Origin: Escherichia coli
Lineage (GTDB): Bacteria > Pseudomonadota > Gammaproteobacteria > Enterobacterales > Enterobacteriaceae
Strand: one strand, 5' to 3'
DNA: 64,000 nt
NCBI GenBank assembly: GCA_902500055.1
Contig: GCA_902500055.1_4131.1
Shown here: in pieces, positions 6,195 through 64,000 of the stretch
How the letters are laid out: each line of letters begins with the position of its first letter
How positions within the stretch are numbered: the stretch's first letter is position 1
Notes under the pieces: model-generated
Database searches by the model: none
Seen by the model: only the letters and a program-made list of their open reading frames with translations
Told to the model about the DNA's origin: nothing
Translations under genes and position numbers: made by a program

Positions 6195-7805
6195 TTATTG
6201 TTGACGTACTGTTTCCCAGTTACCATTTATTTGCATTTGAACATAGCGATAACTAATTCGTTCTAAGTGAGTGCCTGAACTACCATTAACAGAAATCCAT
6301 ACGCCATCCATAAATGCACCTTCTGGTGTATATGTCCATGAAGAATCAGGTATTTTACGTGTTTCAATACGTGCACTCAAACGAATACTTTGTACGTTAT
6401 TAGTACTAATTTGCAAAGTAACGTTGCCACTAGCATCAGCAGCAGTACCGTTAATTGAACGAACAATATTTTTACCACCAACAGTAGCTGAGTTGTTAGA
6501 AACAGTTAATGATGGAGCAGCTAAAGTACCAGAAGAGTTTACAGTAACTTCTGCTCCACCGGAACGCAATCTCAATGTATTATTTGAAGAGTTATGATAC
6601 ACTGCCGCACGCTCACCACCGCTTGCGTTACGGAAATATAGAACTAATGATGTATCATTTGACTTAATTGACGCACTGTTTGCAATAGTCAATGAACCAG
6701 TCATTGTATCACCAGTTTTTAGTACATAACGAGTGTTTGCAACTTTTTCACTCAATGCAACGTTAGATTCAGCAATGTTATATAGATATGCAACGTTAAA
6801 GTGTTCCACATCAATGTTACTAATACCATGATAGTGTGGTTGGTTTCCACCAAGTGTGTTAGTGTTTCCACTAAATGAGTGAATGTGGTCTGGTGCTTCG
6901 TTAATGTTATTGATTACAGTTGGTATACCGTTATCATTACTTGAAGTTATCGCATTTAGACCACTACGGTCCATACCTTTTAGTGCTTGACTATGACCAT
7001 GACGACCAGCAGCCCCTGTGGTCCCACTAAAACTAAATGAGTGTGATGGTAATTGGGCAACACTTAATACTGTGCCGCTAATATTACCGCTACTACCAAT
7101 AACACTATCAGTTTTAGTTACACCAGATGTAGATATACCTTTTAAGTACGCTTTTTGGTTAAGGTTTGGTACTTGTTTAGTAATTGTACCATTTTCCCCC
7201 TCCCATTGCCACCACATACCATCAGCAAAACACCAACCGTCAGACGTTTTCCACGGAGCACCTTGTGAACCGTTTCTCCCACTTTGTCCATTCGATTGTC
7301 CTGACATTTGTTCACGTATACTAGCAACAGATTGACCAGAAGTCAATGAATATTGTGTAATAGCACCAGGTTTAAGTGAAGTGTAAAGACCAGTTGGACC
7401 AGAACCACCACTAGAAGCAGTAGGGAATACAATGTTTAAGGTTGTTCCACTAATACTTGCACTAGGAACAGTACTACTACTGTATGTTACACTTTCTACT
7501 TTTAAATTTAATTTTCGGTTTACTTCATCTAATGAAATTCTAATTGGTTCCAAAATAGTATCAGTATCATATACTGCAACCCAACTTGTACCGTTATGAT
7601 ACTTCAAAACTAATTCGCTTCGATCAAAAACCATTGCACCTTGTTCACCAGTAGGTAAAGTTTGTACTGGTATAATAACTGATGACGAATTAAAACGAAT
7701 AGGTCTTGGGTTAGTTGGTGTACCACCAAGCACTATTAGTTCTAAAGATCCATTAGCACCAGTACTGGTCATTGTATCCAATGGGTTATTAAAACTTATG
7801 CTCAT
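6195..7805 (-). CDS. tail fibre / receptor-binding protein (gp37/gp12-like distal fibre)
   Basis: 536 aa, Ser/Gly/Thr-rich, with His-x-His motifs (RHGHSQ, PDHIHSF, PHYHGISNIDVEH) characteristic of T-even fibre tips; followed by a chaperone-like gene. Confidence 0.6.
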   Translation of the reverse strand: MSISFNNPLDTMTSTGANGSLELIVLGGTPTNPRPIRFNSSSVIIPVQTLPTGEQGAMVFDRSELVLKYHNGTSWVAVYDTDTILEPIRISLDEVNRKLNLKVESVTYSSSTVPSASISGTTLNIVFPTASSGGSGPTGLYTSLKPGAITQYSLTSGQSVASIREQMSGQSNGQSGRNGSQGAPWKTSDGWCFADGMWWQWEGENGTITKQVPNLNQKAYLKGISTSGVTKTDSVIGSSGNISGTVLSVAQLPSHSFSFSGTTGAAGRHGHSQALKGMDRSGLNAITSSNDNGIPTVINNINEAPDHIHSFSGNTNTLGGNQPHYHGISNIDVEHFNVAYLYNIAESNVALSEKVANTRYVLKTGDTMTGSLTIANSASIKSNDTSLVLYFRNASGGERAAVYHNSSNNTLRLRSGGAEVTVNSSGTLAAPSLTVSNNSATVGGKNIVRSINGTAADASGNVTLQISTNNVQSIRLSARIETRKIPDSSWTYTPEGAFMDGVWISVNGSSGTHLERISYRYVQMQINGNWETVRQQ

Positions 7806-7845
7806 GTATAAATCCCTTTATGATTAATATATACTATATTTATTC

Positions 7846-8172
7846 CTATAGCAAGTCGTTATCCATATCATCCCACACAGAATCAATGATGTTTGCTGCT
7901 ATCTTTTTAGACATTTTAAACCACTCCGTGTTTGGTTGTCTAGTTGCATTCATTTGTTTAAGCCTTTTATGTATCTCTTTTTCAGCTAAACGTGCGTCTT
8001 CAAAGTGAACTTCATGATAAACTTCAAAATCACGAAACGGGGTAGCTGTCTGATACGTTCTCAAACGCTCTGTCATTTCAGATTTAGAAGTGAAACCAAT
8101 CTTAACATAGTCAGGCCATGCAGAGTTTATTATAACATAACATATCTGTGACATAGATTCAATCTCCATCAT
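7846..8172 (-). CDS. T5orf172 (GIY-YIG-like) domain protein
   Basis: Motif CYVIINSAWPDYVKIGFT...RLRTYQTATPFRDFEVYHEVHFEDARLAEKEIHKRL...EWF matches the T5orf172/MUG113 signature. Confidence 0.55.
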   Translation of the reverse strand: MMEIESMSQICYVIINSAWPDYVKIGFTSKSEMTERLRTYQTATPFRDFEVYHEVHFEDARLAEKEIHKRLKQMNATRQPNTEWFKMSKKIAANIIDSVWDDMDNDLL

Positions 8173-8193
8173 TAATATGGAGATATTTATCTA

Positions 8194-8553
8194 TCAATTA
8201 ATAGTGAATTTTAAACCAATATCAATTAAACGTTGAAAAGGATTATGTGGCTGAAATTCCGAGGGTTCTTGTGCAATGTTTAGCACAGGAGCATCAGAAT
8301 GCAGCAGCGACATACGTTCTCTATAATGATCGATGTATTCTTCATACAACATATCTTCAGTATGTGTATTAAGTATATCTTCTATGAAAGAATCTAAACT
8401 ATAATCTAATCTATCATCATTATAATACAATGTTTCAGTGGCTTCATCGTATCCAACTAACGTACCATAAGGAACATTTATTTCTATATTTGAGTACTGG
8501 CTCTTTAAGTACTCTTCTCTTTTAAATTTGTATACAGTTAACATCCGTGTCAA
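8194..8553 (-). CDS. hypothetical protein
   Basis: 119-aa ORF; no motif recognised. Confidence 0.4.
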   Translation of the reverse strand: MTRMLTVYKFKREEYLKSQYSNIEINVPYGTLVGYDEATETLYYNDDRLDYSLDSFIEDILNTHTEDMLYEEYIDHYRERMSLLHSDAPVLNIAQEPSEFQPHNPFQRLIDIGLKFTIN

Positions 8554-8567
8554 CTCCTTTAGATTGT

Positions 8568-9722
8568 TTACTTAAAGGTATTTACAATTTCCAGTACAGA
8601 TTTTAGATACTTTTCATCAAACGTTTCAGTAAATCCTGACGGCAACTCTTCAGTACTTACTACTCCACTTTCAATGTACTGCTTGATAAACTTTTCCAGT
8701 AAGAGGGGTTTATTACCATCTTCGAAGAAACGTTCTACTAGTACTTCATGGACGAATTCAGAATCACGACTCTGTTCGTTCACTCTACGTTTCATATCAC
8801 CAGTGATTCCATATTTGTAAACGGTTTTATCTTTATTAGTTAGTTTCTGTACATAAAAATATCCAGGCTTGGAAGTCTGATAACCATACTTACCGCATTT
8901 TGGACAACCACGACCTGTCAAATGTGCTTTAGGTTGCTGATGAAAAATATTTTTACAATTGTTGCATTTTATCTCGACCATTTTTTCACTATGCTCATAC
9001 ATAACAGATGAGTAATCATAATTATTGTTATGAACTTTTACAGCTTCTGCAATAAATTGCTCGGTTGTTCTCCCACCTTTACCTGAACATATACCACATC
9101 CTGACTTCCCAAGTATCAATGTTTTTGGATCAACTTCCCAATCATGATTTCCTTCATTGCAATGCACTGTGACTTTTGTTGTTCTGTTAATATAGTTGGT
9201 TTTTTGGAAACTAAATTTATCACCATAATTACGTTTAACAATTTTTATAAATTCATTATTCGTATGCACTACATTAATATTACAAACGTTACATCCAGCA
9301 CCAGTTAATAACTTATTTGGTGTTATGTGAAAATAACCATTATGTTTAGTGCAGAATATTGTAACTGGAGTTTTTGCATTAACATAAACCAATTTATCAA
9401 ATTTAAATTTTTCAGTCCCGAATTTCTTTTCAACTTTTAAAATGAAATCATCATTATTGGAACGCTGGGACATGTTACTATAACAGTTAGAGCAAGTACA
9501 TGAGATATGACGAATTGCAGACTTTGTATTTTCAATACCACATTTGTTACATTTCAAGGTAGTTTTGCTAGATTTAAAAATCATCGAATTAAAATCAAAC
9601 TCACCATACATTCCATATTTTTCATTCATTTTCTTTTTGAAATTTTCAATTAACATTTTCAATTTACTCAACTTGGTTTCGATTTGATAATTATATATAA
9701 TTAAAAATATTCTGTCAAGCAT
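8568..9722 (-). CDS. homing-endonuclease-like protein: tandem zinc-ribbon repeats plus C-terminal GIY-YIG-like module
   Basis: At least three repeats of the type VTIFCTKHNGYFHITPNKLLTGAGCNVC / VTVHCNEGNHDWEVDPKTLILGKSGCGIC / VEIKCNNCKNIFHQQPKAHLTGRGCPKCG (DUF4379-like ribbons); C-terminus GYFYVQKL...VYKYGITGDMKRR resembles GIY-YIG. Start set to ATG 9722, downstream of the terminator hairpin; track start 9863 would overlap the capsid gene. Confidence 0.5.
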   Translation of the reverse strand: MLDRIFLIIYNYQIETKLSKLKMLIENFKKKMNEKYGMYGEFDFNSMIFKSSKTTLKCNKCGIENTKSAIRHISCTCSNCYSNMSQRSNNDDFILKVEKKFGTEKFKFDKLVYVNAKTPVTIFCTKHNGYFHITPNKLLTGAGCNVCNINVVHTNNEFIKIVKRNYGDKFSFQKTNYINRTTKVTVHCNEGNHDWEVDPKTLILGKSGCGICSGKGGRTTEQFIAEAVKVHNNNYDYSSVMYEHSEKMVEIKCNNCKNIFHQQPKAHLTGRGCPKCGKYGYQTSKPGYFYVQKLTNKDKTVYKYGITGDMKRRVNEQSRDSEFVHEVLVERFFEDGNKPLLLEKFIKQYIESGVVSTEELPSGFTETFDEKYLKSVLEIVNTFK

Positions 9723-9743
9723 TTTTTTAACACAAAAGAAAAG

Positions 9744-9760
9744 GGACTCCGAAGAGTCCC
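9744..9760 (-). terminator. rho-independent terminator hairpin (GGGACTC-cgaa-GAGTCCC) downstream of capsid gene
   Basis: Perfect 7-bp stem; A-run on plus side (T-run on minus) and T-run on plus, so potentially bidirectional. Confidence 0.55.
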
Positions 9761-9804
9761 TATTGTTTTTATATTCTTGATTAAATCTTTTAAATCGTTT
9801 ATAA

Positions 9805-10980
9805 TTACATGAAAGTAACGTTTTTGATAGCGATTTTGCTGTAGTAGTCAGCAGCGTTACCAAGAGATGAAGTACTGTCGGTTAGCTGAACGTAGCCATA
9901 GCGTGTTAAAAATGTGGTCACGAGTTCACCAGTGTTAGGGTCCATTACAGTACCAGAAGCCATTAGTGGGATGTATGGGCAATAGAATACACCAGCATCA
10001 GTTTCCGCATTACCTTTATAACCAATTAGAATATCTTCTGCATCACTAGCATAGGTATCAACGAAAATACGCATAGTGCTGTTTAGAGTACCTACAAACT
10101 TAACGTTAGTTGGTGCTTCAAAAGTACCTTCAGTGGTACGTGCAAAGCTAGAAGTAGTAGCAGATTGTAGAATGGTTAGTGCAGTTGGGGAAACAACAGC
10201 CCAGTTTGCAGCACCACGCTTAGTACGACGAGCAACTTCGTTTGCTTGACGGTTAATTAGAGTAGCTAGAGCAGCGTGCTCATCACCAACGAAGGTTGCA
10301 ACACCAGTAACTTTAGATTGGTCATAAGTTACAGCAGCAGCACCAGGTAGTGCACGTAGACGGCTTAGTAGCTCTTGGTCGATTTCTACAGTAACTTCTT
10401 GAGCGATTGCAGCCATTAGTTCTGCTTCAACGTCAACACCATGTTGGGATTGAGCATCTTGTGCAGATTCAACAGTCCAACGTGCAGATAGACGACGAGA
10501 TTTCGCTTCAACAGTTTCACGTAGAATACGGATGTTAACGCGACGACCCATAGTACCTTCTAGTTGGCTAGTAGGAGCAGCTTGTGGGTTGCTATTATCC
10601 GCATTTAGATCACCAGAGTAGGATTTAGCGATTTTGTATGGAGAAAGCATTTCTTCACCAGCGATTACACCAGGTGCGTTATCAGCATATTGTACACGTA
10701 GGGTGTGGATCTGACCAACTGGACCAGTCATAGGTTGAACACCGATGATTTCGTTAGCAATAACGGTTGGCATTACACGACGCATAATTGGTAGAATCAC
10801 TTTGTTTAGAGTAGCGATGTTACCAGCGGTAGTTGCACCAGAAGTTGCGGATTCAGTTAGCATAACTTTACGATGGTTATCAAGAACAGTTTCCATTACA
10901 GACTTACGAGTACCCTGTAGACCTTCAACTAGTTTCTCTTTTACTGCTACCCATTTGGATTCATTTAGTAGTTGTGACAT
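9805..10980 (-). CDS. 23: major capsid protein (T4 gp23-like; gp24-like vertex paralog not excluded)
   Basis: IIGVQPMTGPVGQIHTLRVQY matches T4 gp23 ICGVQPMNSPTGQVFALRAVY; EAKSRRLSARWTVESAQDAQSQHGVDVEAEL matches EAKSRQLKAAYSIELAQDLRAVHGMDADAEL; lies after the scaffold gene as in T4. RBS AAGGAG. Confidence 0.8.
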   Translation of the reverse strand: MSQLLNESKWVAVKEKLVEGLQGTRKSVMETVLDNHRKVMLTESATSGATTAGNIATLNKVILPIMRRVMPTVIANEIIGVQPMTGPVGQIHTLRVQYADNAPGVIAGEEMLSPYKIAKSYSGDLNADNSNPQAAPTSQLEGTMGRRVNIRILRETVEAKSRRLSARWTVESAQDAQSQHGVDVEAELMAAIAQEVTVEIDQELLSRLRALPGAAAVTYDQSKVTGVATFVGDEHAALATLINRQANEVARRTKRGAANWAVVSPTALTILQSATTSSFARTTEGTFEAPTNVKFVGTLNSTMRIFVDTYASDAEDILIGYKGNAETDAGVFYCPYIPLMASGTVMDPNTGELVTTFLTRYGYVQLTDSTSSLGNAADYYSKIAIKNVTFM

Positions 10981-11026
10981 TATATATCTCCTTAAAGATG
11001 TTATATTCGTTTTTCAGTATGATATT

Positions 11027-18209: not shown

Positions 18210-19046
18210 ATGGCTATGAATCCACTTGCTAAGTACACTAAAATTGAAGAGATCAGTACTAAGTTAGTTACAAACGGCGTTATTCCTTATAAAGAAGGAG
18301 TTCTAGGTCCAAAAGGTGTCAAATGTGGAGTTTGTGCACGTAGTGCACGTGATGAAATGACACTTAATACCCCCGATATGTTACTAAACGGAGATGCAGT
18401 ATCCCGTGTTATTGAAAACTGTGTTCCTAATGTAATTGACGCTGATGAGTTGTATGTAAATGACGTTGAAATGCTTCTTATTGCTATTAAAGTTGCTTCT
18501 AAAGAAGAAACATATGATATTAACGTTGTATGTCCTGAATGTGAAAAAGAAGGTCGATTTGAACGTAATCTATCATATCTTCTTGAAACTGCACAAGCAT
18601 TTGAAGAAATCCCATCAATTGATTTAGATAATGGACTCCGTTTAGAATTTAGACCACTGACATGGAAAGAATATTCATCGTTTGCTGAACGCATGTTCAG
18701 TGAGCAGCAGAAGACTAAGTTTCTTGAAACTGCTGATATTGATAAAGATGAAAAAGTAAAAATATTTTCTGAAGTATTTGAAAACATGGCTCAACTTAAC
18801 TTCGATATGATTGGTGGAGTTATTGCAAAAATTATAACACCAGATGGTGATGAAGTAGTTGAAAAAGAATTTATTAATGAATGGCTTGGACAACAATCGA
18901 AGGGAGTACTTAAACTAATTCGTGAAAAAATGGATGAAGTACTTGAAATTGGTGTATCTCATAGTATGGAAGTAGAATGTGATGGATGTAATCATCAATG
19001 GGAAATTGATGGACTAAAATATGATCCTAGTCATTTTTTCGAGTAA
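18210..19046 (+). CDS. zinc-binding hypothetical protein (three Cys pairs), likely late/structural
   Basis: 278 aa with CGVC, CPEC and CDGC motifs; late promoter and RBS GGAG upstream. Confidence 0.45.
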   Translation: MAMNPLAKYTKIEEISTKLVTNGVIPYKEGVLGPKGVKCGVCARSARDEMTLNTPDMLLNGDAVSRVIENCVPNVIDADELYVNDVEMLLIAIKVASKEETYDINVVCPECEKEGRFERNLSYLLETAQAFEEIPSIDLDNGLRLEFRPLTWKEYSSFAERMFSEQQKTKFLETADIDKDEKVKIFSEVFENMAQLNFDMIGGVIAKIITPDGDEVVEKEFINEWLGQQSKGVLKLIREKMDEVLEIGVSHSMEVECDGCNHQWEIDGLKYDPSHFFE

Positions 19047-19255
19047 TGCTTCTCCAGTCATCTCCTGAAGAAATACAAGAAGTACTGAAGGAGATAGAAC
19101 TGAATAAGTCAGAAATCAAAAATGCACTAATGGAATGTTCTGTATATATGGATAACATTGACTATGGAACACTCCTTAATATGCCATTAATAGATAGAGA
19201 CTTATTAGTTAAGTCTTTTAATAAAAAAATTAAAAAACAAAACGAGAAGCACTAA
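19046..19255 (+). CDS. hypothetical protein
   Basis: 69-aa ORF whose ATG overlaps the upstream stop (TAATG). Confidence 0.4.
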   Translation: MLLQSSPEEIQEVLKEIELNKSEIKNALMECSVYMDNIDYGTLLNMPLIDRDLLVKSFNKKIKKQNEKH

Positions 19256-19266
19256 TTTTCATATAG

Positions 19267-19292
19267 CCAGCACATTGTTGCTGGTTTTTTTT
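19267..19292 (+). terminator. rho-independent terminator (CCAGCA-cattgt-TGCTGG + T8)
   Basis: Perfect 6-bp stem followed by eight T immediately after the 19046-19255 gene. Confidence 0.65.
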
Positions 19293-19440
19293 GGTTTTAA
19301 ACTACAGAATTATTTGAATTGAATTATGAAAGGATTAATTTTAATATTATTGGATTCATCTAACTCATTTCATTCGTTAGCTGAAGAATATTCGTTACTA
19401 CGTAACTCATATTCATTTAATTAAATTAATTATAAAGAAC

Positions 19441-19920
19441 TTTAAAAGATTTAATACTTGACGGGATTTGTTGAGGACATTTTCATCCCCCCGCAGGGGA
19501 ATGAAGACAATAAAAAAGAGACAATGAAGTCTCTATTTCTTGACGCTGATGGTTTCAGCATTTATTGTATTGCGAATTTCTTAAAAATATATTAAGAACG
19601 AAAGCGGGTTGCTCTGTTTCTCTCTATCGCAGTCATGTGCAACGGTCGTCAGTCTTAATCATCCTGACACTCACCTGAAAGTCTATACAATCAAACTTCA
19701 GGCTGTTTATTAAAATCACTTAATAAACTCCCTTAGCAAATCTGGTAAGGTGCGATCCTTATATGTCTATCTAGGAACTCTCTGTATGCTTATCGGAGTT
19801 CTTTATTGAGCCGCATTGCCGTGAGGGGTTCAAACTATGCCCACATCTAACGGGTTTCTTTTGCTCATCGCACTGTTGAACTGCTCATCTGCCATCTACA
19901 TTTTCGATAGGATCAGGTTC
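19441..19920. ncRNA. candidate large structured non-coding RNA in an ORF-free region (strand and ends undetermined)
   Basis: ~840 bp (19256-20092) without any ORF of 60 aa or more in six frames; the core is visibly more GC-rich than flanks and contains multiple hairpins (TCATCCCC/GGGGAATGA, AGAGAC/GTCTCT, TAAGG/CCTTA, AGGAACTC/GAGTTCTT, GCTGA/TCAGC). No canonical tRNA T-loop found. Confidence 0.25.
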
Positions 19921-20092
19921 TAATTTATATGCATTTCTGCATTCAACAGGATTGTCATTACTACAACAAACATTATAGCACTATTTTTAAAATCTTCCCA
20001 CTAATATCATAAAAAAATAAAAAAGTACTTAGTACATTTTTGAAGTATAAAAAAACCAAGTAACAAAACATTACTTGGTTCATAAAAACTAT

Positions 20093-20644
20093 TCAATAAT
20101 TTATATTTTTTGATATGAAGTCTTTTATAATTTTAATGTGGTCATCTGAATACTTTATTCTAAGTAAAGTAATATTATTATCATAACAATACTTATTCTT
20201 AATTTCATCATTTCGTTGTTGTTCAGCTAAACCTTCTTCTCCACCGAAGTATTCTATTGGTTTGAAGTGTTGGATACCATCATATTCTATTAGTAGATTA
20301 AGTTCAGGAATATAAAAATCAAATGGTAAATGATTGATGTTTTTACAACTATCAAATTTCTTTTCCATTTCAAACATTATATCACACGTTTTTAAAAAAT
20401 TCTGAATTTCAATAACAGGTTTTGATTTTAGTTCTTGGTCTGAACAAACTGGACACCCTTGTTTTGCAGAAATGTGTTTATTAGGAACTACTGTGAAGTC
20501 ACCGTGAATGTTACACGTAACAGTTATTGGATGGTGTGCATTGACATATATTGTTTTATTGTATGTGTAAATACTACCATGAATATTCATTGATTTATCT
20601 ATGAATTGTTGTTGTGTAATTTTAGCTATTCTTGTGTACCTCAC
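20093..20644 (-). CDS. zinc-ribbon + PD-(D/E)xK (Vsr/DUF559-like) nuclease, homing-endonuclease-like
   Basis: N-terminus HHPITVTCNIHGDFTVVPNKHISAKQGCPVCS is the same ribbon type as in 8568-9722; C-terminus LPFDFYIPELNLLIEYDGIQHF...RDxxK fits the DUF559/Vsr-like PD-(D/E)xK core. Confidence 0.5.
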   Translation of the reverse strand: MRYTRIAKITQQQFIDKSMNIHGSIYTYNKTIYVNAHHPITVTCNIHGDFTVVPNKHISAKQGCPVCSDQELKSKPVIEIQNFLKTCDIMFEMEKKFDSCKNINHLPFDFYIPELNLLIEYDGIQHFKPIEYFGGEEGLAEQQRNDEIKNKYCYDNNITLLRIKYSDDHIKIIKDFISKNINY

Positions 20645-20689
20645 AAAACTTTTTAATATACATTATTTACAGAAACAGGACAAAACGCT

Positions 20690-21181
20690 ATGAAAAAGAG
20701 ATTGAAAAATCCCAATGAAGCAGCAGCTTACAGAAAAGAACTACTAAAAAAACAAAATGGTATTGACCCCATTATAGGAATAAAAATAACTAAACCAGTA
20801 CTTGACCACTATCATGGTGGAAATCAACATTGTAGACAGGTTCTTCAAAATGAGGTGAATGGATGGGAAGGAAGGGTCGCAAATTCATTTAAACGCTGTC
20901 TGGGCCATTTAACTGATAAACCTCTTCATGAAGTACTAAGAAATCTGGCAGATTATCTTGAAAAGAACAATAACATTCCACCTGAAGAGCAAGTCATACA
21001 TCACACAGCACTAACTGTGGATGTTAATAAGTTTAAAAGGCTTCCAGCAACACAGCAAAACGCGATTCTGGAAGGGTTAGGAGTTGTCCCTGGTAGTAAC
21101 ACTACTGCTCGTGTAAAGCAAGCTAGAAAGCTGATTAAGGACGGTAAATTAAATATGGTTGATATAAAAAAAGGGAGCTAA
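20690..21181 (+). CDS. endonuclease VII-like / His-Me finger nuclease (uncertain)
   Basis: PVLDHYHGGNQHCRQVLQNEVNGWEGRV loosely resembles T4 endonuclease VII HLDHDHELNGPKAGKVRGLLCNLCNAAEG; 163 aa versus 157 aa. Confidence 0.35.
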   Translation: MKKRLKNPNEAAAYRKELLKKQNGIDPIIGIKITKPVLDHYHGGNQHCRQVLQNEVNGWEGRVANSFKRCLGHLTDKPLHEVLRNLADYLEKNNNIPPEEQVIHHTALTVDVNKFKRLPATQQNAILEGLGVVPGSNTTARVKQARKLIKDGKLNMVDIKKGS

Positions 21182-21192
21182 GGCTCCCTTTA
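21174..21192. terminator. bidirectional terminator hairpin (GGGAGC...GCTCCC) between convergent genes
   Basis: Stem-loop with flanking A-run and T-run, between 20690-21181 (+) and 21200-23347 (-). Confidence 0.5.
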
Positions 21193-21199
21193 TCTTTAA

Positions 21200-23347
21200 T
21201 TAGAAAACATCGTCAAGGGTTGCATATTCAACAGTACTGAAACCGTCCTCTTTAACAACTTTGAGGATTTTTTCAGTCTTAGATAGTAACTCTTCTCTGT
21301 GGGAAATAGCATAAACGTTCTTACCACGTACAGCAGCCATATCTTGGAAGATAGACCACACACGTAGAACACCACTTGAGTCAAGACCTTGGTCAATCAT
21401 CTCATCAATGATAAGAATATTAATACTTTGGTATAATGACTCATATGTATCACGGAAAGCACAAGATAATGCGATGTTTACCCTTGTACGCTCACCTCTA
21501 CTAAGCTGTTTATAGTCAAAGTACTGTCCACTCTTCTCAATTTCAACACTCAAATCATTCAAAAACACAACATTATGCTCAGAACCGCACATATCGATAT
21601 AGTACTGAAGTCGTGTATTCAAATATGAGATATTTTGCTCAATAATACGTTTACGGACATAAGAATCCTTGTTTAAAAGTAATTTAACCAAGAAATCTTG
21701 GTGATTTGACATTTTATCAAGATTATTATAGTCGCTATAATCGATTGGTACTAAAGAATCAGTCTTCAGGGTATTAATTTGGCTAATAAATGTGTTAGTA
21801 GTCTTCAATTCACGATCTAATTGCTGTGATAATGAATTTACAGTCATTTCTAACTCTTTAACTTCATATTTGTTTAATGTATCTGGAACTTCCATTAGTT
21901 CATATGAGTTAAGTTCATCATATGATGACATAAGTTCATTTGCATAGATGTTTATTTGTTCTTCTTCACTCTTTCTGACCAATTCTTGAAGCTTATGTTC
22001 ATGCATTTGTGCTTCTGAAAGTGTATTATAATATGTCACAGGCTTAGGTGGCATATCAAAAATCTCAATACTATCAATTTCTTGAAGTAATGTTTCAATT
22101 TCCGAAGAAGAACTATCAATTTTAGCTTGAAGATCATTAATAGTACTTTGGATTTTGTCTTTAATTGAAGAAGTATGTTCGTTATGTTCTAATTCAGACA
22201 TACAAAGTGGACATTTGCTGTTTTCAACTGTTGATAATTTGTCAATTTCAGCATTAATTGAACATTCATATCCTTTTAAAGCTATTTTTAGTGAGTTTAG
22301 TTTTTGTTCTTTGAAACGTTTTTGGTTATTATTCTCTTTTAGAATACCCTCTAACTGTTTCCATATCTCCAACTCATTATGATTTTCCAATTCTGCACTA
22401 ATATCAATAGTTTTTAGCTTATCAATGCTTAGATTTAATGCTCTTTTAGATCTTTCAAGTTCACGGTCATATGCATCAAATTTTAAAGCCAACTCTTGTA
22501 CACGGCGTTCGATTTCACCACGCTTTGCGTTATGAATAAGAGCTTTCTCTTTTATGTCAGCAGCTTCATAGAGGTCATTAAAGTCTAAAGTTTTATATAT
22601 ATTCAACTCTTCATTTAACTTAGATACTCTATTATTTTTATCAATTTCAAACTGGTTTGCCTGTTCTTGTAGTGCCTCAATACTTTTTTGAATACGTTCA
22701 TTACTTGCAGCTACAGTTTCATTTTTGAACTTTTCTTGTTCGGCTAAACGTTTAGTATCCTTATACATCTCCTTTAGCATTTCAGCTTTTTCCGTCAACT
22801 GTGTTATTCCAAGAAGTTCTTCTATCATATCACGTTGTTTTTGTGTGGATAAAGCTAAGAAAGGTTCAACGTTAGCATTCAGTACTACAATATGTTCAAA
22901 TAATAATTGAGATATACCAAGAATTTCATTCAAATCTTCTTGTGTGTCTTTCTTTTCTCCCCTTGATTCATCTTCAATTTTATTATCTTTCCCTAAAGTA
23001 ACAAAATTGAAATACGTGGGACTTCTCCCACGTTCAACCAAATATTGTACACCATCTTTTTCAAACTCTACAACTACTTCACAATTTTTTCCATTAGTTT
23101 TATTGACTAGGTTAGGAATTTTAATATCGTTACCAATACTTTTACCAAATAATCCAAAAACTAATCCTTGAATAATAGCACTTTTCCCTACACCATTTCG
23201 ACGTCCGGTACTGTCACCACCTTCAATAACTGCATCATTATTTTGACCCAGTACTAATGAAATGTCGGAACCATTTAAATCAATTGATTGTGGTGCATTA
23301 CCAAATGAAAAGAAGTTCCTCATAGATATACGTGTAATGTTTAGCAT
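21200..23347 (-). CDS. 46: recombination endonuclease subunit gp46 (SbcC/Rad50-like ATPase)
   Basis: P-loop GRRNGVGKSAIIQGLVFGLFGK at N-terminus, long coiled-coil middle, C-terminus LSRGERTRVNIALSCAFRD...ILIIDE matching T4 gp46 FSEGEKARIDIALLFTWRD...LILDE. Confidence 0.85.
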   Translation of the reverse strand: MLNITRISMRNFFSFGNAPQSIDLNGSDISLVLGQNNDAVIEGGDSTGRRNGVGKSAIIQGLVFGLFGKSIGNDIKIPNLVNKTNGKNCEVVVEFEKDGVQYLVERGRSPTYFNFVTLGKDNKIEDESRGEKKDTQEDLNEILGISQLLFEHIVVLNANVEPFLALSTQKQRDMIEELLGITQLTEKAEMLKEMYKDTKRLAEQEKFKNETVAASNERIQKSIEALQEQANQFEIDKNNRVSKLNEELNIYKTLDFNDLYEAADIKEKALIHNAKRGEIERRVQELALKFDAYDRELERSKRALNLSIDKLKTIDISAELENHNELEIWKQLEGILKENNNQKRFKEQKLNSLKIALKGYECSINAEIDKLSTVENSKCPLCMSELEHNEHTSSIKDKIQSTINDLQAKIDSSSSEIETLLQEIDSIEIFDMPPKPVTYYNTLSEAQMHEHKLQELVRKSEEEQINIYANELMSSYDELNSYELMEVPDTLNKYEVKELEMTVNSLSQQLDRELKTTNTFISQINTLKTDSLVPIDYSDYNNLDKMSNHQDFLVKLLLNKDSYVRKRIIEQNISYLNTRLQYYIDMCGSEHNVVFLNDLSVEIEKSGQYFDYKQLSRGERTRVNIALSCAFRDTYESLYQSINILIIDEMIDQGLDSSGVLRVWSIFQDMAAVRGKNVYAISHREELLSKTEKILKVVKEDGFSTVEYATLDDVF

Positions 23348-32298: not shown

Positions 32299-32333
32299 GA
32301 ATAAATATTTCTATATAAATCATGGAGTGATGT

Positions 32334-33041
32334 ATGAAAAGATATTATGGTTTCATTTATCAATGGGAAGATTGTTCCAATGGTATAAAATATATAGGTT
32401 CTCATTATGGAACAACTGATGACAAGTACGTGTCTTCTAATATTATAGTTAATCGCATTTATAAGAGTAGACCCCTTGATTTATCAAGAGTCGTTTTGGA
32501 ATATATTATTGTTAATGATAAGAATTTTTTATTGGAAAGAGAACAAAAATACTTAGATTTAATACTTCCGTCTGAATTGTATACTAGTACCAATAGAAAA
32601 AACAAAACCGTAAAATATTACAACATGAAAAAGAATGCATGTGGTGGTAACGGTGGTATTGGAAGTAATGGTATATTGAAAAATAAAATAAAATATTTTA
32701 ATAAAAATACTTTAGAACAGAAATTCTTTCATTATAATGATGACATATCGGATGATTGGATTAAAGGTGTACCCCCATCTAAGGTTAGTTGTTCAGGTAG
32801 TATTTGGTATCTAAATATACATACTGGAGAAAATAAAAGATTTAGACATAACCCTGGTATAGATTGGATTGAAGGAAAACGCAATACTTCAACAACACCA
32901 AAAAAGGTAAGCACACCATATGGGATTTTCGAAAGTGCATCTGAATGTAGTAGACAAACTGGAATAAAACAAGGAACTGTATCATTTAGGTGTCGTTCCA
33001 AATCAACTAATATGACAAATTGGTTTTATATAGAGGAATAA
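32334..33041 (+). CDS. GIY-YIG homing endonuclease (Seg-like)
   Basis: N-terminal YYGFIYQWEDCSNGIKYIGSHYG is a GIY-YIG motif; basic C-terminal half resembles the DNA-binding region of Seg endonucleases; inserted between gp25-like and gp6-like genes. Confidence 0.6.
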   Translation: MKRYYGFIYQWEDCSNGIKYIGSHYGTTDDKYVSSNIIVNRIYKSRPLDLSRVVLEYIIVNDKNFLLEREQKYLDLILPSELYTSTNRKNKTVKYYNMKKNACGGNGGIGSNGILKNKIKYFNKNTLEQKFFHYNDDISDDWIKGVPPSKVSCSGSIWYLNIHTGENKRFRHNPGIDWIEGKRNTSTTPKKVSTPYGIFESASECSRQTGIKQGTVSFRCRSKSTNMTNWFYIEE

Positions 33042-59007: not shown

Positions 59008-62000
59008 ATGTACTCAATAAAAACTGACTTAGATATTACTGGTGCTGGTACGGTTGGTAAGGATCTTTTAGTCAAAGGAAATGCTGTTTTCAATAATAAC
59101 CTAACTGTAAATGGTACTGTAACTTTTGCAAATGCAACTTTTACTGCCATTGAATCATCAACTGCCAATATTACATCTACTTTAGATGTAGGTGGCAAAG
59201 CAACACTTTCTGGTGGTCTTGGTGTTGAGGGTAATACTACAATCGGTAGTGCAGTGGTCGGGTCTGATACAGCAACAATTAATTCAAACGCTACCTTTAA
59301 CGGTACTGTATCAGTTGGTTCTGATTTTACACAAACTGCTGGTACAACCACTCTACAAGCAACTAAAGTTAAAAACTTAGAAGTTGCTGAAACAACAGCA
59401 TTTAAAGGTAATATTACTGCTGATGTTGGTACTACTGCTGCATTTGATAAAATTACTGCTAATACCGCAGAAATTACTAATGTAAGTACAACCGATATTA
59501 GTAGTACTGGTACTGCTACATTTAAAGATGTGACAATTAGTGGTACACTTGGTGGTGAGTTTAATCTATCTGACTTAAATGCAGTAACATTGAACGTTAC
59601 TGGTGCATCTAACCAACAAGGTGCAGTAACTTTCGGTGCTAACGTAACTGGTATTAACAGTACTGCTACTTTTAAAGACATTCGTATTGGTTCTAACTCT
59701 GAATCTCAAACCTTCAGATTAAGCTTCCCTTACACTGCTCCTGGTAAACGCCCAACTGTTATTCTACAAAACGAAATTCAGTCCGAGTTAATGTCACCTG
59801 CAAACTTAACAGTTTTGACATCTGCTTCTTTTGGTAATGCGTCATTATCTTCTTATGGTATTACTGGTAATGGTCTAAACAAATTAGATTATCTAACAGT
59901 TTCTGGTAACAATACACAATCACCAGACACCCCACTATTAGAAGTTCAAAAAGGAAAAACCAAAGTTGCCGATTTTGAAGTTACAGGAACCGCAACTATA
60001 CCAAATATTGAAAGTACTGGAACTGCTAATTTTAATAATATTAATATTTCTGGTGTTCTTGGTGGAACATTCCAACTAGATGATATTAATGCAGTAACAT
60101 TGAACGTTACTGGGGCCACTTCGTTAGTTGGTGGTGTTACTCTTGGTTCTAATATTACTGGTTATAATAGTACTGCTACCTTTAAAGCTATTAGCTTAGG
60201 TCAAAATAGTCAAGATGCAGCAGTGAAACTAGGTTTTGGATATACTGCACCCGGTCAACGCCCAACAGTTATTCTACCTAATGAAGTTCAATCAGAAGTA
60301 GTTTCTCCTTCTACATTGAACGTTCTTAAAACTGCAACTTTTGGTAATGCGTCATTATCGTCTTATGGCATTACTGGTAATGGCCTAAACAAATTAGATT
60401 ATCTAACAGTTTCTGGTAACGAAACACAAGCTCCAGATACACCACTATTAGAAGTTCAAAAAGGAAAAACCAAAGTTGCTGACTTTGAAGTCACCGGAAC
60501 TGCAACTATACCAAATATTGAAAGTACTGGAACTGCTAATTTTAATAATATTAATATTTCTGGTGTTCTTGGTGGAACATTCCAATTAGACGATATTAAT
60601 GCAGCATCTTTGAACGTTACTGGTGCAACTTCATTAGTTGGTGGTGTTACTCTTGGTTCTAATATTACTGGTTATAACAGTACTGCATCATTTAAAGCTA
60701 TCAGCTTAGGCCAAAGTAGTCAAGATTCTGCTGTAAAACTTGGATTTGGATATACTGCACCAAGTCAACGTCCAACCGTGATTTTACCTAACGAAGTTCA
60801 ATCAGAATTAGTTTCTCCTTCAACACTGAACGTTCTAAAAACGGCAACTTTTGGTAATGCTGCACTTTCTACGTATGGTATTACTGGTAATGGCCTAAAC
60901 AAATTAGATTACCTAACCATTACAGGTAACGCAACACAAGACCCTAGTACACCATTCCTACAAGTTGGTGGTAAAGCAATTCTTAATGATGTTGAATTTA
61001 CTGGAACAGTAACTGGGTTAACTGTTGATGTAAGTGGTCAGGATCTAACACCAAACTCAGTTGTTGCTGCGACAAATATTAAAGGTGCAACCCTTGAAAG
61101 TACTGGTAACACTACTGTGGGTGCTAAACTAACTGTTACTGGTGATATTGCTGGTACAACTGCAACTCTTTCTGGTGCATTATCTGCTGGTTCAATAAGT
61201 TCTGGTGTTATTACTGGTACAACTTCAGTTTCAGCACCAACAATTAGTGCATCTACTGAAGTAACTGCTCCTACTATCACTGCTAGTGGGACTTTAAGTG
61301 GTCAAACTATTAACGGAACTAATATTAGTGCAACAACTCTTACTGCACCAACTATTAGTGGTAATACAAACTTTACAGAAAATGTTGATATTACTGGCAA
61401 CCTAACCGTTACTGGCACAGTAACGCCAGGTACGATTGATTTGAGCACAACTGATGTAAGTGCGAAATCTATTACTACTACCGCTGGTGCAAATATTGGT
61501 GGTGATCTTGTGGTTCAAGGTTCTTTTGATTTATCATCAGCAGACATTAGCGTTAAATCACTAACTGCTTCTGGTATTGTTAAAAGTAATGATCTTGTTA
61601 ATGCTAACGTACTTCCAGTACTTAATAGTACTACTGCAACAATTAATACTGTTAATGCAACTGAACTTGCGGTAACAGGTCCATCCAATCTAGCATCTGT
61701 TCGTACAAGTGCTGATGTTGTAGTCGGAACAACTTTAAATGTAAGTGGTGAAACAACAACTGCATCTCTAGTTACTCCATCTATTTCCAATGCAACTGGT
61801 GTTACAATTGGTAATAATACTTCTATCACTGGTGACTTAACTGTTAGTGGTGCTGTGATTCCTGGATCTATCGACCTAGCATCAACTGATGTTAACGCTA
61901 AATCAATCACAACAACTGCTGGTGCAACAATTGGTGGAAACTTAACCGTTAACGGTACAGTAGACCTAACTGCTGCTGATGTAACAGTTAAATCTCTAAC

Positions 62001-64000
62001 CAGTACTGGTGCAATCATTAGTAATGAATCAACTATTAGTAGTGTTCTACCTAAACTACAAAGTACTGATGCGACAATTGCAACTCTAGGTTCTACTACT
62101 GCGAATATTACTAATTTGAATGTAACTGGTGCAACTTCTGTTGCTGATGTAACATCTTCTGGTAAAGTTACAGCAGTTTCTATTGAAGTTCCAACCATTG
62201 GTAATACTGCGGGTGTATCTATTGCTAATAATACATCTATTACTGGTGACCTAACAGTTTCTGGTACAGTGACACCAGGTGCTATTGATTTAACAACAAC
62301 TGATGTTAATGCTAAATCAATCACAACAACTGCTGGTGCGACTATTGGTGGTGATCTTGTTGTTTCTGGTACAGTTGATTTAAGTGGTTCTGATGTATCT
62401 GTTAAATCTCTAACAAGTACTGGTATTATTACAGTTAGTAGTGCAGAAGGTATTAACGTTCTACCTAAAGTTCAAAGTACTGAAGTTACAGTGTCTGCTC
62501 TAAATGCAACAAATGCAGTAGTTTCTGGTGATGTTTCAGCAGCAACAGCTTCAATCTCAGGTGCAGTTACTGGTGGTTCAGCAACGCTATCTGGTGCTGG
62601 AACTGCTCTAAATGTAACTAATAATGCAACTGTCGGCGGTACACTTACTGTTGGTTCTATTACTTCAGCGGCAGAAAATGTATCCATTACTAAAAATACC
62701 GCTGTCACTGGTAATTTAGCAGTATCTGGAACTCTAACTGCTGGTGTTATTGATTTGAGCACAACTGATGTGTCTGTGAAGACATTAACTTCTCTAGGTG
62801 ATGCAACCGTTCAAGGTAACTTAACTGTTGATGGTTCTATTGACCTAAGTTCTGCAAACATCGTCGGTGTAACACTAGAAAGTACTGGCTCTACCACTGT
62901 AGGTACTGATTTGATTCTAACTACAGGTAACATTACAGGTAGTCCATCTATTTCTGGTAACTTGGGTGTTACTGGAACCACAACGTTAACTGGTGCAACT
63001 ACAGTTTCAAACACATTGTCAACTGGTGGTAAACTAACAGTTAATACTGGTGGTATTCAAGTAGTTGATGGTGGTATTCAAGTTGATGCAGGAACTATTA
63101 CCGCACCAAGTGCTAATATTTCTGGTGACTCTACCCTTAATAGTGCAACTGTAACTACTACCCTTGGTGTTACTGGTGCAGCTAGTATGAATGGTGGCCT
63201 TACAGCATCTACTCTAGATGTAACTGGTGACAGTACTGTACAAAAACTAACTGTTAAGGGTGCATTTATTCCTGAAGGTGGTTTGGACCTATCCGGTGCT
63301 GATCTTAACGTGAATAGCGTAACTGCTGCAACCACATTAAGTGTTACTGGTGCAAGTACTCTAACTGGTGGTGTTTCCACTTCAACTGTTACTGCATCCG
63401 GTAAGGTAACCTCACAAGAACTAAGTACTGGTACATTGGCAGTAACCACAAATGGAACAGTTGGTGGTACTTTAGATGTAACTGGAAAGGCAACAGTCGG
63501 TTCACTAGATTCAGGTGCAATATCTGCAACTTCTGGTACATTTAGTACTACACTAGGTGTAACAGGTGCAGCAACATTTGGTAACAATGTTAATATTACT
63601 GGCACGTTAACCCCAGGTGCATTGGATTTATCTAGTACTGATGTAGATGCTAACAGTCTTTCTGTTGCAACAACCCTACATTCAAACGGCAATGCAACAA
63701 TCGGTGGTACACTAGGTGTAACTGGTGCAGCAACTGCTCCATCAATCGCTCTTAATGGTGAAGGAACTGCATTAGCAGTTACTAACAATGCAACAATTGG
63801 TGGTACACTAGGTGTAACTGGAAAGGCAACTGTCGGTTCACTAGATTCAGGTGCAATATCTGCCACATCTGGTACATTTAGTACTACACTGGATGTAACT
63901 GGAGCAGCAACATTTGGTAACAATGTTAACATTACTGGCACATTAACACCAGGTGCATTGGATTTAACTAGTACTGATGTAGTTGCTAACAGTCTTTCTG
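59008..64000 (+). CDS. giant repetitive Thr/Gly/Ser/Asn-rich fibre-like protein, partial (at least 1,660 aa, continues past window end)
   Basis: Manual codon-by-codon translation from ATG 59008 (RBS GGAGGG at 58997-59002) shows no stop up to 64000: MYSIKTDLDITGAGTVGKDLLVKGNAVFNNNLTVNGTVTFANATFTAIESS... Contains three tandem ~170-aa repeats and many copies of motifs such as TPG(A/T)IDL(S/T)TTDV(N/S)AKSITTTAGA(T/N)IGG. Missing from ORF track because no stop lies in the window. Confidence 0.75.
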   Translation, partial: MYSIKTDLDITGAGTVGKDLLVKGNAVFNNNLTVNGTVTFANATFTAIESSTANITSTLDVGGKATLSGGLGVEGNTTIGSAVVGSDTATINSNATFNGTVSVGSDFTQTAGTTTLQATKVKNLEVAETTAFKGNITADVGTTAAFDKITANTAEITNVSTTDISSTGTATFKDVTISGTLGGEFNLSDLNAVTLNVTGASNQQGAVTFGANVTGINSTATFKDIRIGSNSESQTFRLSFPYTAPGKRPTVILQNEIQSELMSPANLTVLTSASFGNASLSSYGITGNGLNKLDYLTVSGNNTQSPDTPLLEVQKGKTKVADFEVTGTATIPNIESTGTANFNNINISGVLGGTFQLDDINAVTLNVTGATSLVGGVTLGSNITGYNSTATFKAISLGQNSQDAAVKLGFGYTAPGQRPTVILPNEVQSEVVSPSTLNVLKTATFGNASLSSYGITGNGLNKLDYLTVSGNETQAPDTPLLEVQKGKTKVADFEVTGTATIPNIESTGTANFNNINISGVLGGTFQLDDINAASLNVTGATSLVGGVTLGSNITGYNSTASFKAISLGQSSQDSAVKLGFGYTAPSQRPTVILPNEVQSELVSPSTLNVLKTATFGNAALSTYGITGNGLNKLDYLTITGNATQDPSTPFLQVGGKAILNDVEFTGTVTGLTVDVSGQDLTPNSVVAATNIKGATLESTGNTTVGAKLTVTGDIAGTTATLSGALSAGSISSGVITGTTSVSAPTISASTEVTAPTITASGTLSGQTINGTNISATTLTAPTISGNTNFTENVDITGNLTVTGTVTPGTIDLSTTDVSAKSITTTAGANIGGDLVVQGSFDLSSADISVKSLTASGIVKSNDLVNANVLPVLNSTTATINTVNATELAVTGPSNLASVRTSADVVVGTTLNVSGETTTASLVTPSISNATGVTIGNNTSITGDLTVSGAVIPGSIDLASTDVNAKSITTTAGATIGGNLTVNGTVDLTAADVTVKSLTSTGAIISNESTISSVLPKLQSTDATIATLGSTTANITNLNVTGATSVADVTSSGKVTAVSIEVPTIGNTAGVSIANNTSITGDLTVSGTVTPGAIDLTTTDVNAKSITTTAGATIGGDLVVSGTVDLSGSDVSVKSLTSTGIITVSSAEGINVLPKVQSTEVTVSALNATNAVVSGDVSAATASISGAVTGGSATLSGAGTALNVTNNATVGGTLTVGSITSAAENVSITKNTAVTGNLAVSGTLTAGVIDLSTTDVSVKTLTSLGDATVQGNLTVDGSIDLSSANIVGVTLESTGSTTVGTDLILTTGNITGSPSISGNLGVTGTTTLTGATTVSNTLSTGGKLTVNTGGIQVVDGGIQVDAGTITAPSANISGDSTLNSATVTTTLGVTGAASMNGGLTASTLDVTGDSTVQKLTVKGAFIPEGGLDLSGADLNVNSVTAATTLSVTGASTLTGGVSTSTVTASGKVTSQELSTGTLAVTTNGTVGGTLDVTGKATVGSLDSGAISATSGTFSTTLGVTGAATFGNNVNITGTLTPGALDLSSTDVDANSLSVATTLHSNGNATIGGTLGVTGAATAPSIALNGEGTALAVTNNATIGGTLGVTGKATVGSLDSGAISATSGTFSTTLDVTGAATFGNNVNITGTLTPGALDLTSTDVVANSLS
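59581..60960 (+). repeat. direct tandem repeat, period 510 bp (170 codons), about 2.7 copies, inside the giant fibre gene
   Basis: Copies begin at 59581, 60091 and 60601 (each starts GCAG(T/C)A...TTGAACGTTACTGG); copies 2 and 3 are near-identical over long stretches. Confidence 0.8.
63481..64000 (+). repeat. direct repeat, period ~340 bp, within the giant fibre gene
   Basis: ACTGGAAAGGCAAC(A/T)GTCGGTTCACTAGATTCAGGTGCAATATCTGC...GGTACATTTAGTACTACACT... occurs at 63481 and again at 63821 with few substitutions. Confidence 0.7.

Follow-up and report, generated by a model that had tools for sequence, protein, structure and literature searches.

Free-standing genes of a jumbo coliphage join one zinc module to two unrelated nuclease folds and are probable homing endonuclease genes

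Genes for zinc-ribbon proteins with nuclease-like domains, when found among the structural genes of a phage, raise the question of whether a common DNA-binding module has been passed from one nuclease to another and whether such genes are selfish. This is the question posed by a locus in a 64,000-nucleotide stretch of DNA (hereafter the window) from the Escherichia coli assembly GCA_902500055.1. The original prediction, made from the letters alone, placed there a T5orf172 protein and a larger protein with tandem DUF4379-like zinc ribbons, and proposed that the same ribbon recurs at 20093-20644 on a different nuclease core. Here we report that one zinc module is joined to two unrelated nuclease folds within this genome. 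The genes are probably homing endonuclease genes (HEGs), free-standing in the genome of a jumbo phage and built from a zinc-module array and a C-terminal nuclease. Their domain composition, module homology, indel status, multiple alleles and flanking footprints were observed; we infer their activity, targets, current mobility and promoter use. The proteins concerned and their parts are as follows.

8568..9656, minus strand: predicted HEG of 362 amino acids (aa), the large gene, with four zinc modules and a C-terminal T5orf172 domain (homologue length, phrog_681, model)
9483..9656, minus strand: zinc module 1 (CxxC...CxxC), the most divergent, 22-26% identical to the other modules in the alignment
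9282..9452, minus strand: zinc module 2 (CxxH...CxxC), sharing 40% identity with the single module at 20444..20614
9087..9260, minus strand: zinc module 3 (C-x4-H...CxxC), bearing the Pfam CapR-homology match
8895..9065, minus strand: zinc module 4 (CxxC...CxxC), bearing the Pfam DUF4379 match
8571..8873, minus strand: T5orf172 / GIY-YIG-fold nuclease domain (GYFYV ... YKYGIT ... R ... GFTETF), by family profiles and predicted fold
20093..20644, minus strand: predicted HEG of 183 aa from a GTG start (165 aa from ATG), with one zinc module and a Vsr-like PD-(D/E)xK domain (phrog_559, 1e-50; phrog_9084 'homing endonuclease', 4e-30)
20444..20614, minus strand: its single zinc module (CxxH...CxxC), by alignment and BLASTP
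20096..20422, minus strand: its Vsr-like / EDxHD-type PD-(D/E)xK domain (D109 ... E120-x-D122 ... H126 ... D146), by conservation, Foldseek and the motif of PMC3239194
7846..8172, minus strand: stand-alone T5orf172 (GIY-YIG superfamily) protein of 108 aa without a DNA-binding domain (Pfam T5orf172 E=3.7e-13, MUG113 E=9.3e-13)

The ribbon does reappear at 20093-20644. In BLASTP, three modules out of the four in the large protein aligned with the one in the 183-aa protein (E=1e-8, 2e-8 and 4e-7; 29-41% identity over 44-108 residues), and all five modules could be aligned under a common pattern, F-I...HG..Y.Y...Y....V.v.C..H/C...P..hl.g.GC..C. The similarity exceeds Cys spacing because the identity covers many non-ligand positions (F-I, HG, Y-x-Y, V-x-C, P-x-x-H/L). 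Both proteins also match the same PHROGs (559, 681 and 4605) through the module region. A hidden Markov model (HMM) built from the five modules detected no further copy among the 457 open reading frames (ORFs) of the window. The nuclease has been exchanged in the relatives as well: three homologues of the large protein (P0042, P0047 and P0053) have a PD-(D/E)xK C-terminus in place of T5orf172, in P0047 and P0053 behind the same modules. The domain shuffling that had been proposed is thus visible both within the genome and among homologues.

The large protein matches phrog_681 'endonuclease' (3e-73) and was modelled with AlphaFold2 (AF2) at a predicted local distance difference test score (pLDDT) of 88.5. 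Its modules, of ~57 residues, consist of an alpha-helix (F-I..A...HG) followed by two beta-hairpin knuckles with C-x2-[C/H] and C-x2-C; in the model, module 1 has a helix, a beta-hairpin and a short helix, as do the others. Against Pfam, the protein matched DUF4379 (E=6e-7), confirming tandem DUF4379-like ribbons, four in number, and CapR weakly (6e-3); among its homologues, 36/44 matched DUF4379, 17/44 DUF723 and 10/44 CapR. By these profiles, and by two Cys/His knuckles 20-30 residues apart, we assign the modules to the CapR/DUF723/DUF4379 type of zinc DNA-binding domain. The CapR module itself needs its four Cys residues to bind DNA, as seen in electrophoretic mobility shift assays with Cys-to-Ser mutants, and its origin lies in HEGs of this kind (Netter et al. 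2021, PMC8096241). The start of the large gene had been set at 9722; we replaced it by 9656, since a predicted sigma-70 promoter has its -35 box running into the ATG at 9722 and a 99% identical database protein of 362 aa (P0001) begins at the ATG equivalent to 9656. In the deposited phage collection, tblastn found no allele of the large protein above 68% aa identity.

The C-terminus of the large protein had been described as GIY-YIG-like. The predicted fold has the beta-beta-alpha-beta-alpha core of the GIY-YIG fold, and homologue profiles and profile-profile comparison identify the domain itself as T5orf172. T5orf172 or MUG113 was matched by 15/44 homologues (best 2.7e-6 and 3.5e-7), and hhalign aligned the family of the large protein with that of the 108-aa protein at 89.9% probability (E=1.7e-6), with GYFYV/YKYGIT/R/ETF opposite G.vYV/KIG/R/EWF. 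An HMM of the C-terminus reached the 108-aa ORF at E=0.15 only, and profile-profile comparison alone linked the two T5orf172 domains; a match of this HMM to the 183-aa ORF was discounted, as it arose from PD-(D/E)xK-bearing homologues in the alignment, since removed. G265, Y268, Y280, K281, G283, I284, R291 and E344 are at least 90% conserved among homologues. With roles assigned from the family literature, the catalytic Tyr residues of GIY and YIG, the Arg and the Glu are present; in the 108-aa protein the residues concerned are Y12, K24, G26, R36 and E83.

The C-terminus of the 183-aa protein (model pLDDT 94.8) had been read as a PD-(D/E)xK core, and its predicted fold is Vsr-like: 1vsr (prob 1.00, E=1.3e-2) and 1cw0 (prob 0.99) were the top Foldseek matches, followed by the R2 restriction-like endonuclease, AbaSI, PvuRts1I and TnsA. 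Among 44 homologues, E120, H126 and D146 never vary and D109 is kept in at least 90%; D122 is present in this protein and most homologues and is N or Q in some. A composite active-site set defines the Vsr-like EDxHD homing endonucleases, among them the phage Hef type (Taylor et al. 2011, PMC3239194), and by that motif definition the protein would possess the full set. Proteins annotated 'VSR homing endonuclease' and 'Hef-like homing endonuclease' are among its tblastn relatives. No PDB chain, neither I-Bth0305I nor Vsr included, was matched significantly by phmmer or by profile search, and zinc-finger and RING matches of both proteins in direct PDB-chain searches were dismissed as chance. Pfam matches were all below threshold (DUF2726 9e-4; DUF723 E=1e-3, just under; DUF559 E=0.063). 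Membership in the Vsr-like/EDxHD family rests on fold, motif and annotated relatives because direct sequence similarity is absent. Among the profiles suggested at the outset, T5orf172 and DUF4379 were recovered by HMM search, whereas DUF559 was sub-threshold and Vsr was reached by fold and motif only. Taken over both proteins, homologue profiles, hhalign and predicted folds support the nuclease domains.

The structure searches also returned organellar proteins. The best PDB match of the zinc-module array model was a protein of a Trypanosoma brucei mitoribosomal assembly intermediate (6yxx_E2; E=5.8e-5, prob 1.00, 282 columns), the next were kinetoplastid mitochondrial small-subunit (mt-SSU) proteins, and the Vsr-like domain of the 183-aa protein also matched apicomplexan and ciliate mitoribosomal proteins. 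These matches hint that organellar ribosomal proteins reuse homing-endonuclease-type modules.

Why does the second gene carry a single module? Its closest relative, in phage ECO103 4-12-1, is a 323-aa version with three modules, and nearly all listed homologues are 290-320 aa long. The window copy lacks exactly 420 bp, in frame, with the junction in a 24-nt imperfect direct repeat encoding the '(K)QGCPVCSD' knuckle. This points to a one-module truncated derivative of a normally three-module protein, its single module being, by alignment, a chimera in which the N-terminal part comes from ancestral module 1 and the end from ancestral module 3. We considered assembly collapse and think it improbable, the identical sequence (165 aa from the internal ATG) having been recorded from two contigs (P0058). 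Module loss may have altered or reduced the specificity of the enzyme.

We then turned to the surroundings of both genes. By nucleotide similarity the window belongs to an Asteriusvirus, a 121Q/PBECO4-like jumbo coliphage: in megablast against deposited phages, positions 7000-11000 matched 63 records and positions 19000-22000 matched 58, all from Rak2-like jumbo phages, the nearest being the Asteriusvirus Escherichia phages 121Q, PBECO4, ECO103 4-12-1 and others. The first locus falls in the late/structural region. Going leftwards along the minus strand, the major capsid gene is followed by the large nuclease gene, then by a 116-aa gene, by the 108-aa T5orf172 gene and by the tail fibre. The ORF map placed the three ORFs where they had been proposed, all on the minus strand, and confirmed the position between fibre and capsid genes.

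6195-7805, minus strand: tail-fibre gene (ORF map)
8194..8544, minus strand: 116-aa gene (phrog_15724, match 7e-57) between the two T5orf172-bearing genes
8545..9726, minus strand: HEG cassette 1, 1182 bp against 40 bp in PBECO4, containing a promoter, the HEG and the Shine-Dalgarno sequence that serves the downstream gene
9690..9718, minus strand: predicted sigma-70 promoter (TTGACA-17-TATAAT), 12/12 consensus match, directly after the capsid terminator and within cassette 1
9742..9761, minus strand: intrinsic terminator of the major capsid gene, an 8-bp stem with 5 GC pairs and a T-run, kept in PBECO4
9805-10980, minus strand: major capsid gene (ORF map)
9850..9930, minus strand: hypervariable synonymous patch, capsid codons 351-377 (codon comparison, 15 genomes)
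20032..20688, minus strand: HEG cassette 2, 657 bp against 58 bp in PBECO4, between a non-coding element and the endonuclease VII (endoVII) gene
20053..20081, minus strand: intrinsic terminator of cassette 2, a 13-bp stem and T-run just past the stop codon, within the insertion
20690..21007, plus strand: diverged 5' tract of the endoVII gene, codons 1-106 (comparison with PBECO4)

Comparison with relatives that lack the insertions gave exact PBECO4 junctions for both cassettes and footprints in the neighbouring genes. At the first site, PBECO4 homology ends at 8544 and resumes at 9727; cassette 1 lies between the capsid-gene terminator, which is the left boundary of homing site 1, and the 116-aa gene. 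Presence at this fixed position is sporadic and the site is multi-allelic. It is empty in PBECO4, SD-1_S14 and Pectobacterium phage CBB, and holds three-module alleles (306-307 aa) in E9.1, ECO103 4-12-1 and slurp01, four-module alleles (362-368 aa) in the window, 121Q, UB, A4, BF17 and others, and a very divergent 332-aa allele in SHEFM2K; a 304-aa ORF of Klebsiella phage fENko-Kae01 was placed by position alone. Alleles share 44-62% identity in the DNA-binding part and 85-91% in the nuclease domain. In RefSeq the genes of 121Q and PBECO4 are annotated as 'endonuclease' and 'GIY-YIG nuclease family protein'.

Close relatives are ~99-100% identical on either side of cassette 1, but identity collapses beside it. 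Compared with PBECO4, the capsid gene has 28 differing codons, all synonymous, of which 13 lie within the 18 codons 351-368 (binomial P=8e-11). Codons 340-391 encode an identical protein in 15 genomes, and in the same genomes codons 351-377 exist in at least 7 DNA versions (8 by our reading), some of them mosaic, with Ser TCN/AGY and Arg CGN/AGR switches. Nine close relatives show 73-85% identity to the window in the patch and 99.3-99.9% over codons 1-300. The case of 121Q is informative: it has the capsid patch of the divergent phage A4 and an A4-like HEG, whereas elsewhere its capsid gene and that of the window are 99.9% identical, which indicates import of the HEG with its flank. We predict that capsid codons ~351-377 are the recognition/cleavage region of the first HEG, or the end of a co-conversion tract.

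The second site shows a comparable footprint. Cassette 2 is covered by 2/58 related records, and fENko-Kae01 has a 318-aa ORF at the same position and in the same orientation, placed by position alone. The first 106 codons of endoVII share 70-75% identity with PBECO4, 43 codons differing synonymously and 22 non-synonymously; from codon 107 onward there are zero differences, giving a sharp boundary at 106/107. ECO103 4-12-1, which carries the HEG, has an endoVII gene identical to that of the window throughout. Codons 1-106 are a putative co-conversion tract and target region linked to cassette 2. Divergence of the flank linked to the cassette is thus found at capsid codons 351-377 and at endoVII codons 1-106, as a correlation in both cases. 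Homing with co-conversion and immunity of the target site would be expected to leave such patterns.

A separate observation concerns the endoVII gene of Salmonella phage SD-15_S21 (L006, 2045-2400, equivalent to window 20689-21181), which looks disrupted in a phage that is otherwise 99.6-99.7% identical. The part equal to 20689-20836 has 73.6% identity, 20837-20982 is missing, and two small ORFs are annotated instead. This could be damage at a homing site or an assembly problem.

Both zinc-module genes are read as selfish because of their presence or absence with respect to PBECO4 and the recombination footprints in neighbouring essential genes. The same cannot be said of the 108-aa T5orf172 gene. 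Its protein, whose identification as T5orf172 was correct at the level of Pfam profiles (PF10544/PF13455), keeps all of the family-invariant residues Y12, N16, K24, G26, P45, E83 and W84 and the near-invariant R36. The gene occurs once per genome in 66 Rak2-like phages, its products being 68-100% identical in aa sequence, with Escherichia, Salmonella, Klebsiella, Erwinia, Yersinia, Pectobacterium, Xanthomonas, Cronobacter and Serratia phages among them; the next-nearest relatives are in T5-like phages. The 108-aa/116-aa pair is syntenic (capsid ... pair ... tail fibre) in Pectobacterium phage CBB and Klebsiella phage fENko-Kae01 (loci L010 and L011). By this distribution the 108-aa gene behaves as a fixed lineage gene and is not an indel; it is perhaps an old domesticated nuclease domain. 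The 116-aa gene, whose protein has no Pfam match, lies outside the mobile cassette: PBECO4, which lacks the HEG, has it with a start equivalent to window 8544. Since the 108-aa gene is present at the same position in 66 phages, the description of the locus as a cluster of selfish genes was overstated, being apt for the two zinc-module genes, with their indels and footprints, and not for the 108-aa gene.

A model of homing that accommodates these observations would run as follows. In a 'beads-on-a-string' plan, the N-terminal CapR/DUF723/DUF4379-type modules would read DNA and the C-terminal nuclease would cut it. During mixed infection the enzyme would cut the empty allele in or beside the adjacent essential gene of a cassette-less phage, the first target being capsid codons ~351-377 and the second the 5' part of endoVII or the intergenic spacer. 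The break would be repaired from the HEG-carrying genome, copying the cassette along with its flanks, and the carrier's own site would be uncuttable through its synonymous or diverged flanks. Recombination between repeats and between alleles would alter module number and sequence and so retarget the enzymes; the second HEG, with two of three modules lost, may be weakened or decaying. Cassette 1 would bring its own sigma-70-type promoter and cassette 2 its own terminator.

Several points weigh against this model or against the assignments beneath it. The large protein alone matched Pfam T5orf172 below threshold (E=0.032), and BLASTP between it and the 108-aa protein was not significant (E=0.55). 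For the 183-aa protein, the Foldseek E-values of the Vsr matches were only ~1e-2, its family profile against PDB sequences gave only AbaSI (E=0.31), and with two of its three DNA-binding modules gone it may be inactive. The promoter scan as a whole was not enriched over shuffled sequence (12 found, 12.0 expected). SHEFM2K has a diverged HEG yet the capsid patch of PBECO4. Ordinary recombination with divergent cassette-carrying phages could be the source of the flank divergence, and linkage to the HEG falls short of proving that the patch is the target.

Could the genes instead be domesticated or decaying relics, once homing and now neutral passengers or otherwise employed? We think this unlikely, while noting what speaks for it: the 420-bp loss of two of three modules from the 183-aa gene in a family whose listed members are nearly all ~300 aa long, and a 108-aa T5orf172 protein that lacks a DNA-binding domain and is fixed across genera. 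Yet both zinc-module ORFs are intact, all family-invariant catalytic residues are present and the deletion is in frame; the cassettes retain their own promoter and terminator, and the several alleles of site 1, with mosaic alleles and flank versions, argue for continuing exchange.

It is also quite unlikely that the genes are primarily weapons against subviral parasites or co-infecting phages, with propagation secondary, on the pattern of the ICP1 T5orf172 nuclease Odn, which destroys PLE. T5orf172 and CapR-domain proteins are documented in phage-satellite conflict (PMC8263062, PMC10448857), and the promoter of cassette 1 is host-type and early-looking. Set against this, presence or absence at fixed intergenic sites near essential genes with diverged flanks is the classical signature of homing, and Asteriusvirus has no known satellite or foreign target. 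The two roles are in any case compatible, as cutting a competitor's allele amounts to marker exclusion. Inter-phage exclusion, raised in the original prediction, may be a further role.

That the large protein is mainly a CapR-like DNA-binding regulator of capsid or late genes, its nuclease domain inactive, is very improbable. The protein does have a CapR-homology match, its gene adjoins that of the major capsid protein, and in ICP1 the capsid operon is repressed by CapR through DNA binding (PMC8096241). CapR, however, lacks a nuclease domain, whereas here the T5orf172 domain is the most conserved part between alleles, with the GIY, YIG, Arg and Glu positions conserved; and PBECO4 and SD-1_S14 live without the gene, so it is not a needed regulator. 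Finally, it is barely credible that the ribbons of two unrelated proteins agree by convergent Cys/His spacing only: zinc ribbons are short and do recur by convergence, and module 1 is distant even from its neighbours, but the BLASTP identity at non-ligand positions, the shared PHROGs and the homologues that bear the other protein's nuclease all contradict it.

If homing is taken as the preferred reading, a bolder extension suggests itself, which we regard as a long shot: HEG alleles and capsid patch versions would co-evolve as lock and key under a modular recognition code, with every combination of zinc modules matched to one synonymous DNA version, and the 108-aa/116-aa pair would be a domesticated nuclease that joins or polices the conflict. 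The basis for the lock and key would be the variety of patch versions and the divergence of module regions on a conserved nuclease, both described above. If true, the natural allele series would encode a decipherable protein-DNA code comparable in usefulness to zinc-finger or TALE arrays.

How far do these elements belong to a known kind? Among T5orf172 HEGs of ICP1 and other phages, 87% of the data set have CapR, DUF723 or DUF4379-type zinc fingers, often repeated as 'beads on a string'; ICP1 gp174* has an in-frame deletion of 228 bp between repeats that left one module; and domain swapping of HEGs, and their location at boundaries of genetic exchange, were reported in the same study (Barth, Dunham & Seed 2023, PMC10448857). 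The large gene resembles the ICP1 HEGs gp121, gp165 and gp174 in its N-terminal Cys-knuckle array and C-terminal T5orf172 domain, and the window HEGs resemble them in being free-standing near essential genes, with variable module number and module/nuclease swaps. The large protein is 32% identical to the ICP1 'tcgB putative homing endonuclease' over residues 225-383 (tblastn); if gene numbering is a guide, gp121 sits beside the capsid gene gp122, much as the large gene sits beside its capsid gene here. The reduction to one module that involved 228 bp in gp174* involves 420 bp here, in a Vsr-type gene. Unlike the ICP1 HEGs, those of the window reside in a Rak2-like jumbo coliphage, the large protein has four modules with mixed CCCC/CHCC ligands, and the target is predictable from a synonymous hypervariable capsid patch. 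CapR, the capsid-operon repressor of the PLE satellite, shares the zinc-module type and is a repressor without a nuclease domain.

The 183-aa protein has its counterpart in I-Bth0305I (PDB 3R3P) and the Hef type, which are phage-borne and share a C-terminal Vsr-like PD-(D/E)xK domain with the Asp/Glu/Asp/His/Asp set. In I-Bth0305I, as in the 183-aa protein, the DNA-binding region is N-terminal, the reverse of I-TevI; I-Bth0305I is intron-encoded with NUMOD/helix-turn-helix motifs, whereas the 183-aa gene is free-standing with a zinc module.

T4-like phages harbour the free-standing Seg (GIY-YIG) and Mob (HNH) HEGs, with marker exclusion by SegF and SegG and intronless homing. As with these, the window elements are intergenic cassettes between conserved genes, sporadic among close relatives; Seg and Mob enzymes cut the neighbouring gene of a HEG-less phage and co-convert its flanks, and the same is proposed here. 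In Seg and Mob enzymes the nuclease is N-terminal and is followed by helix-turn-helix or zinc-finger tails, an order that the two zinc-module HEGs reverse.

Architecture, repeat loss and domain swapping were thus already described by Barth et al. 2023 (PMC10448857), and the window elements belong to that known kind. The novelty lies in a zinc module paired with a Vsr-like nuclease within the one genome, in the series of alleles and in the target sites that we predict. Homing endonucleases shape phage mosaicism and are sources of programmable nucleases, and this locus is a well-resolved natural example from a jumbo phage, whose footprints give testable target predictions; the present view of how such elements work stays unchanged. 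For phage-therapy genomics, the locus accounts for sharp short-tract differences in essential genes among otherwise 99%-identical Asteriusvirus genomes.

Two further elements were found in the window.

32321-33027 (ORF 32334-33041), plus strand: third free-standing HEG cassette, 707 bp against 27 bp of PBECO4, between gp25-like and baseplate-wedge genes
19517-19977, minus strand: candidate non-coding RNA of ~450 nt, with a structured core at ~19570-19919, a -10-like TATAAT at 19972-19977 and hairpin/T-run terminators

The 235-aa protein of the third cassette has an I-TevI-type DNA-binding domain (Pfam PF20987, E=4e-6), matches phrog_314 'homing endonuclease' (1.4e-12) and shows, by eye, an N-terminal GIY...YIG motif; its ORF is a true relative of the free-standing T4-like type. 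Over the first 200 bp downstream, flank identity falls to 86-89%.

The RNA element is GC-richer than its surroundings and lies inside a ~780-bp ORF-free stretch beside cassette 2, in which no tRNA or tmRNA genes were found. Blastn detected it in 71 Rak2-like jumbo phage records of several genera, at 4-5 places per genome in most and at 2 in the Klebsiella RaK2/K64-1 group, every one of them an unannotated gap. The consensus fold of seven copies, drawn from five genera, has 82 pairs, with 95.6% of cells paired; compensatory changes occurred in 37/82 pairs, against 5-11 in slid controls, and 0/500 shuffles reached the observed value. The minus strand is indicated by G-U pairs, by the -10-like box, which is kept in closer copies, and by the terminators. 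In Rfam 15 no family reached the gathering threshold and only chance small-RNA matches appeared at E<=1; a group I intron or other known RNA at this place was rejected accordingly. An nhmmer comparison over the first 30 kb of the related phage PA5oct showed no similarity to its RNA-seq-defined ncRNA001 and ncRNA002. The element is a candidate for an undescribed phage RNA family and may be more novel than the HEG cassettes.

Within the window, a 29-nt inverted match (90% identity, E=0.001) connects 19427-19455, in the AT-rich spacer upstream of the RNA element, with 9780-9807, just past the capsid stop codon; the match may reflect a common regulatory motif or chance. At the far end, positions 60241-64000 have only 93% identity to the right end of the PBECO4 genome, and shifted, overlapping secondary matches there (61389-61515, 63434-63843 and 63770-64000) suggest dispersed or tandem repeats near the genome end.

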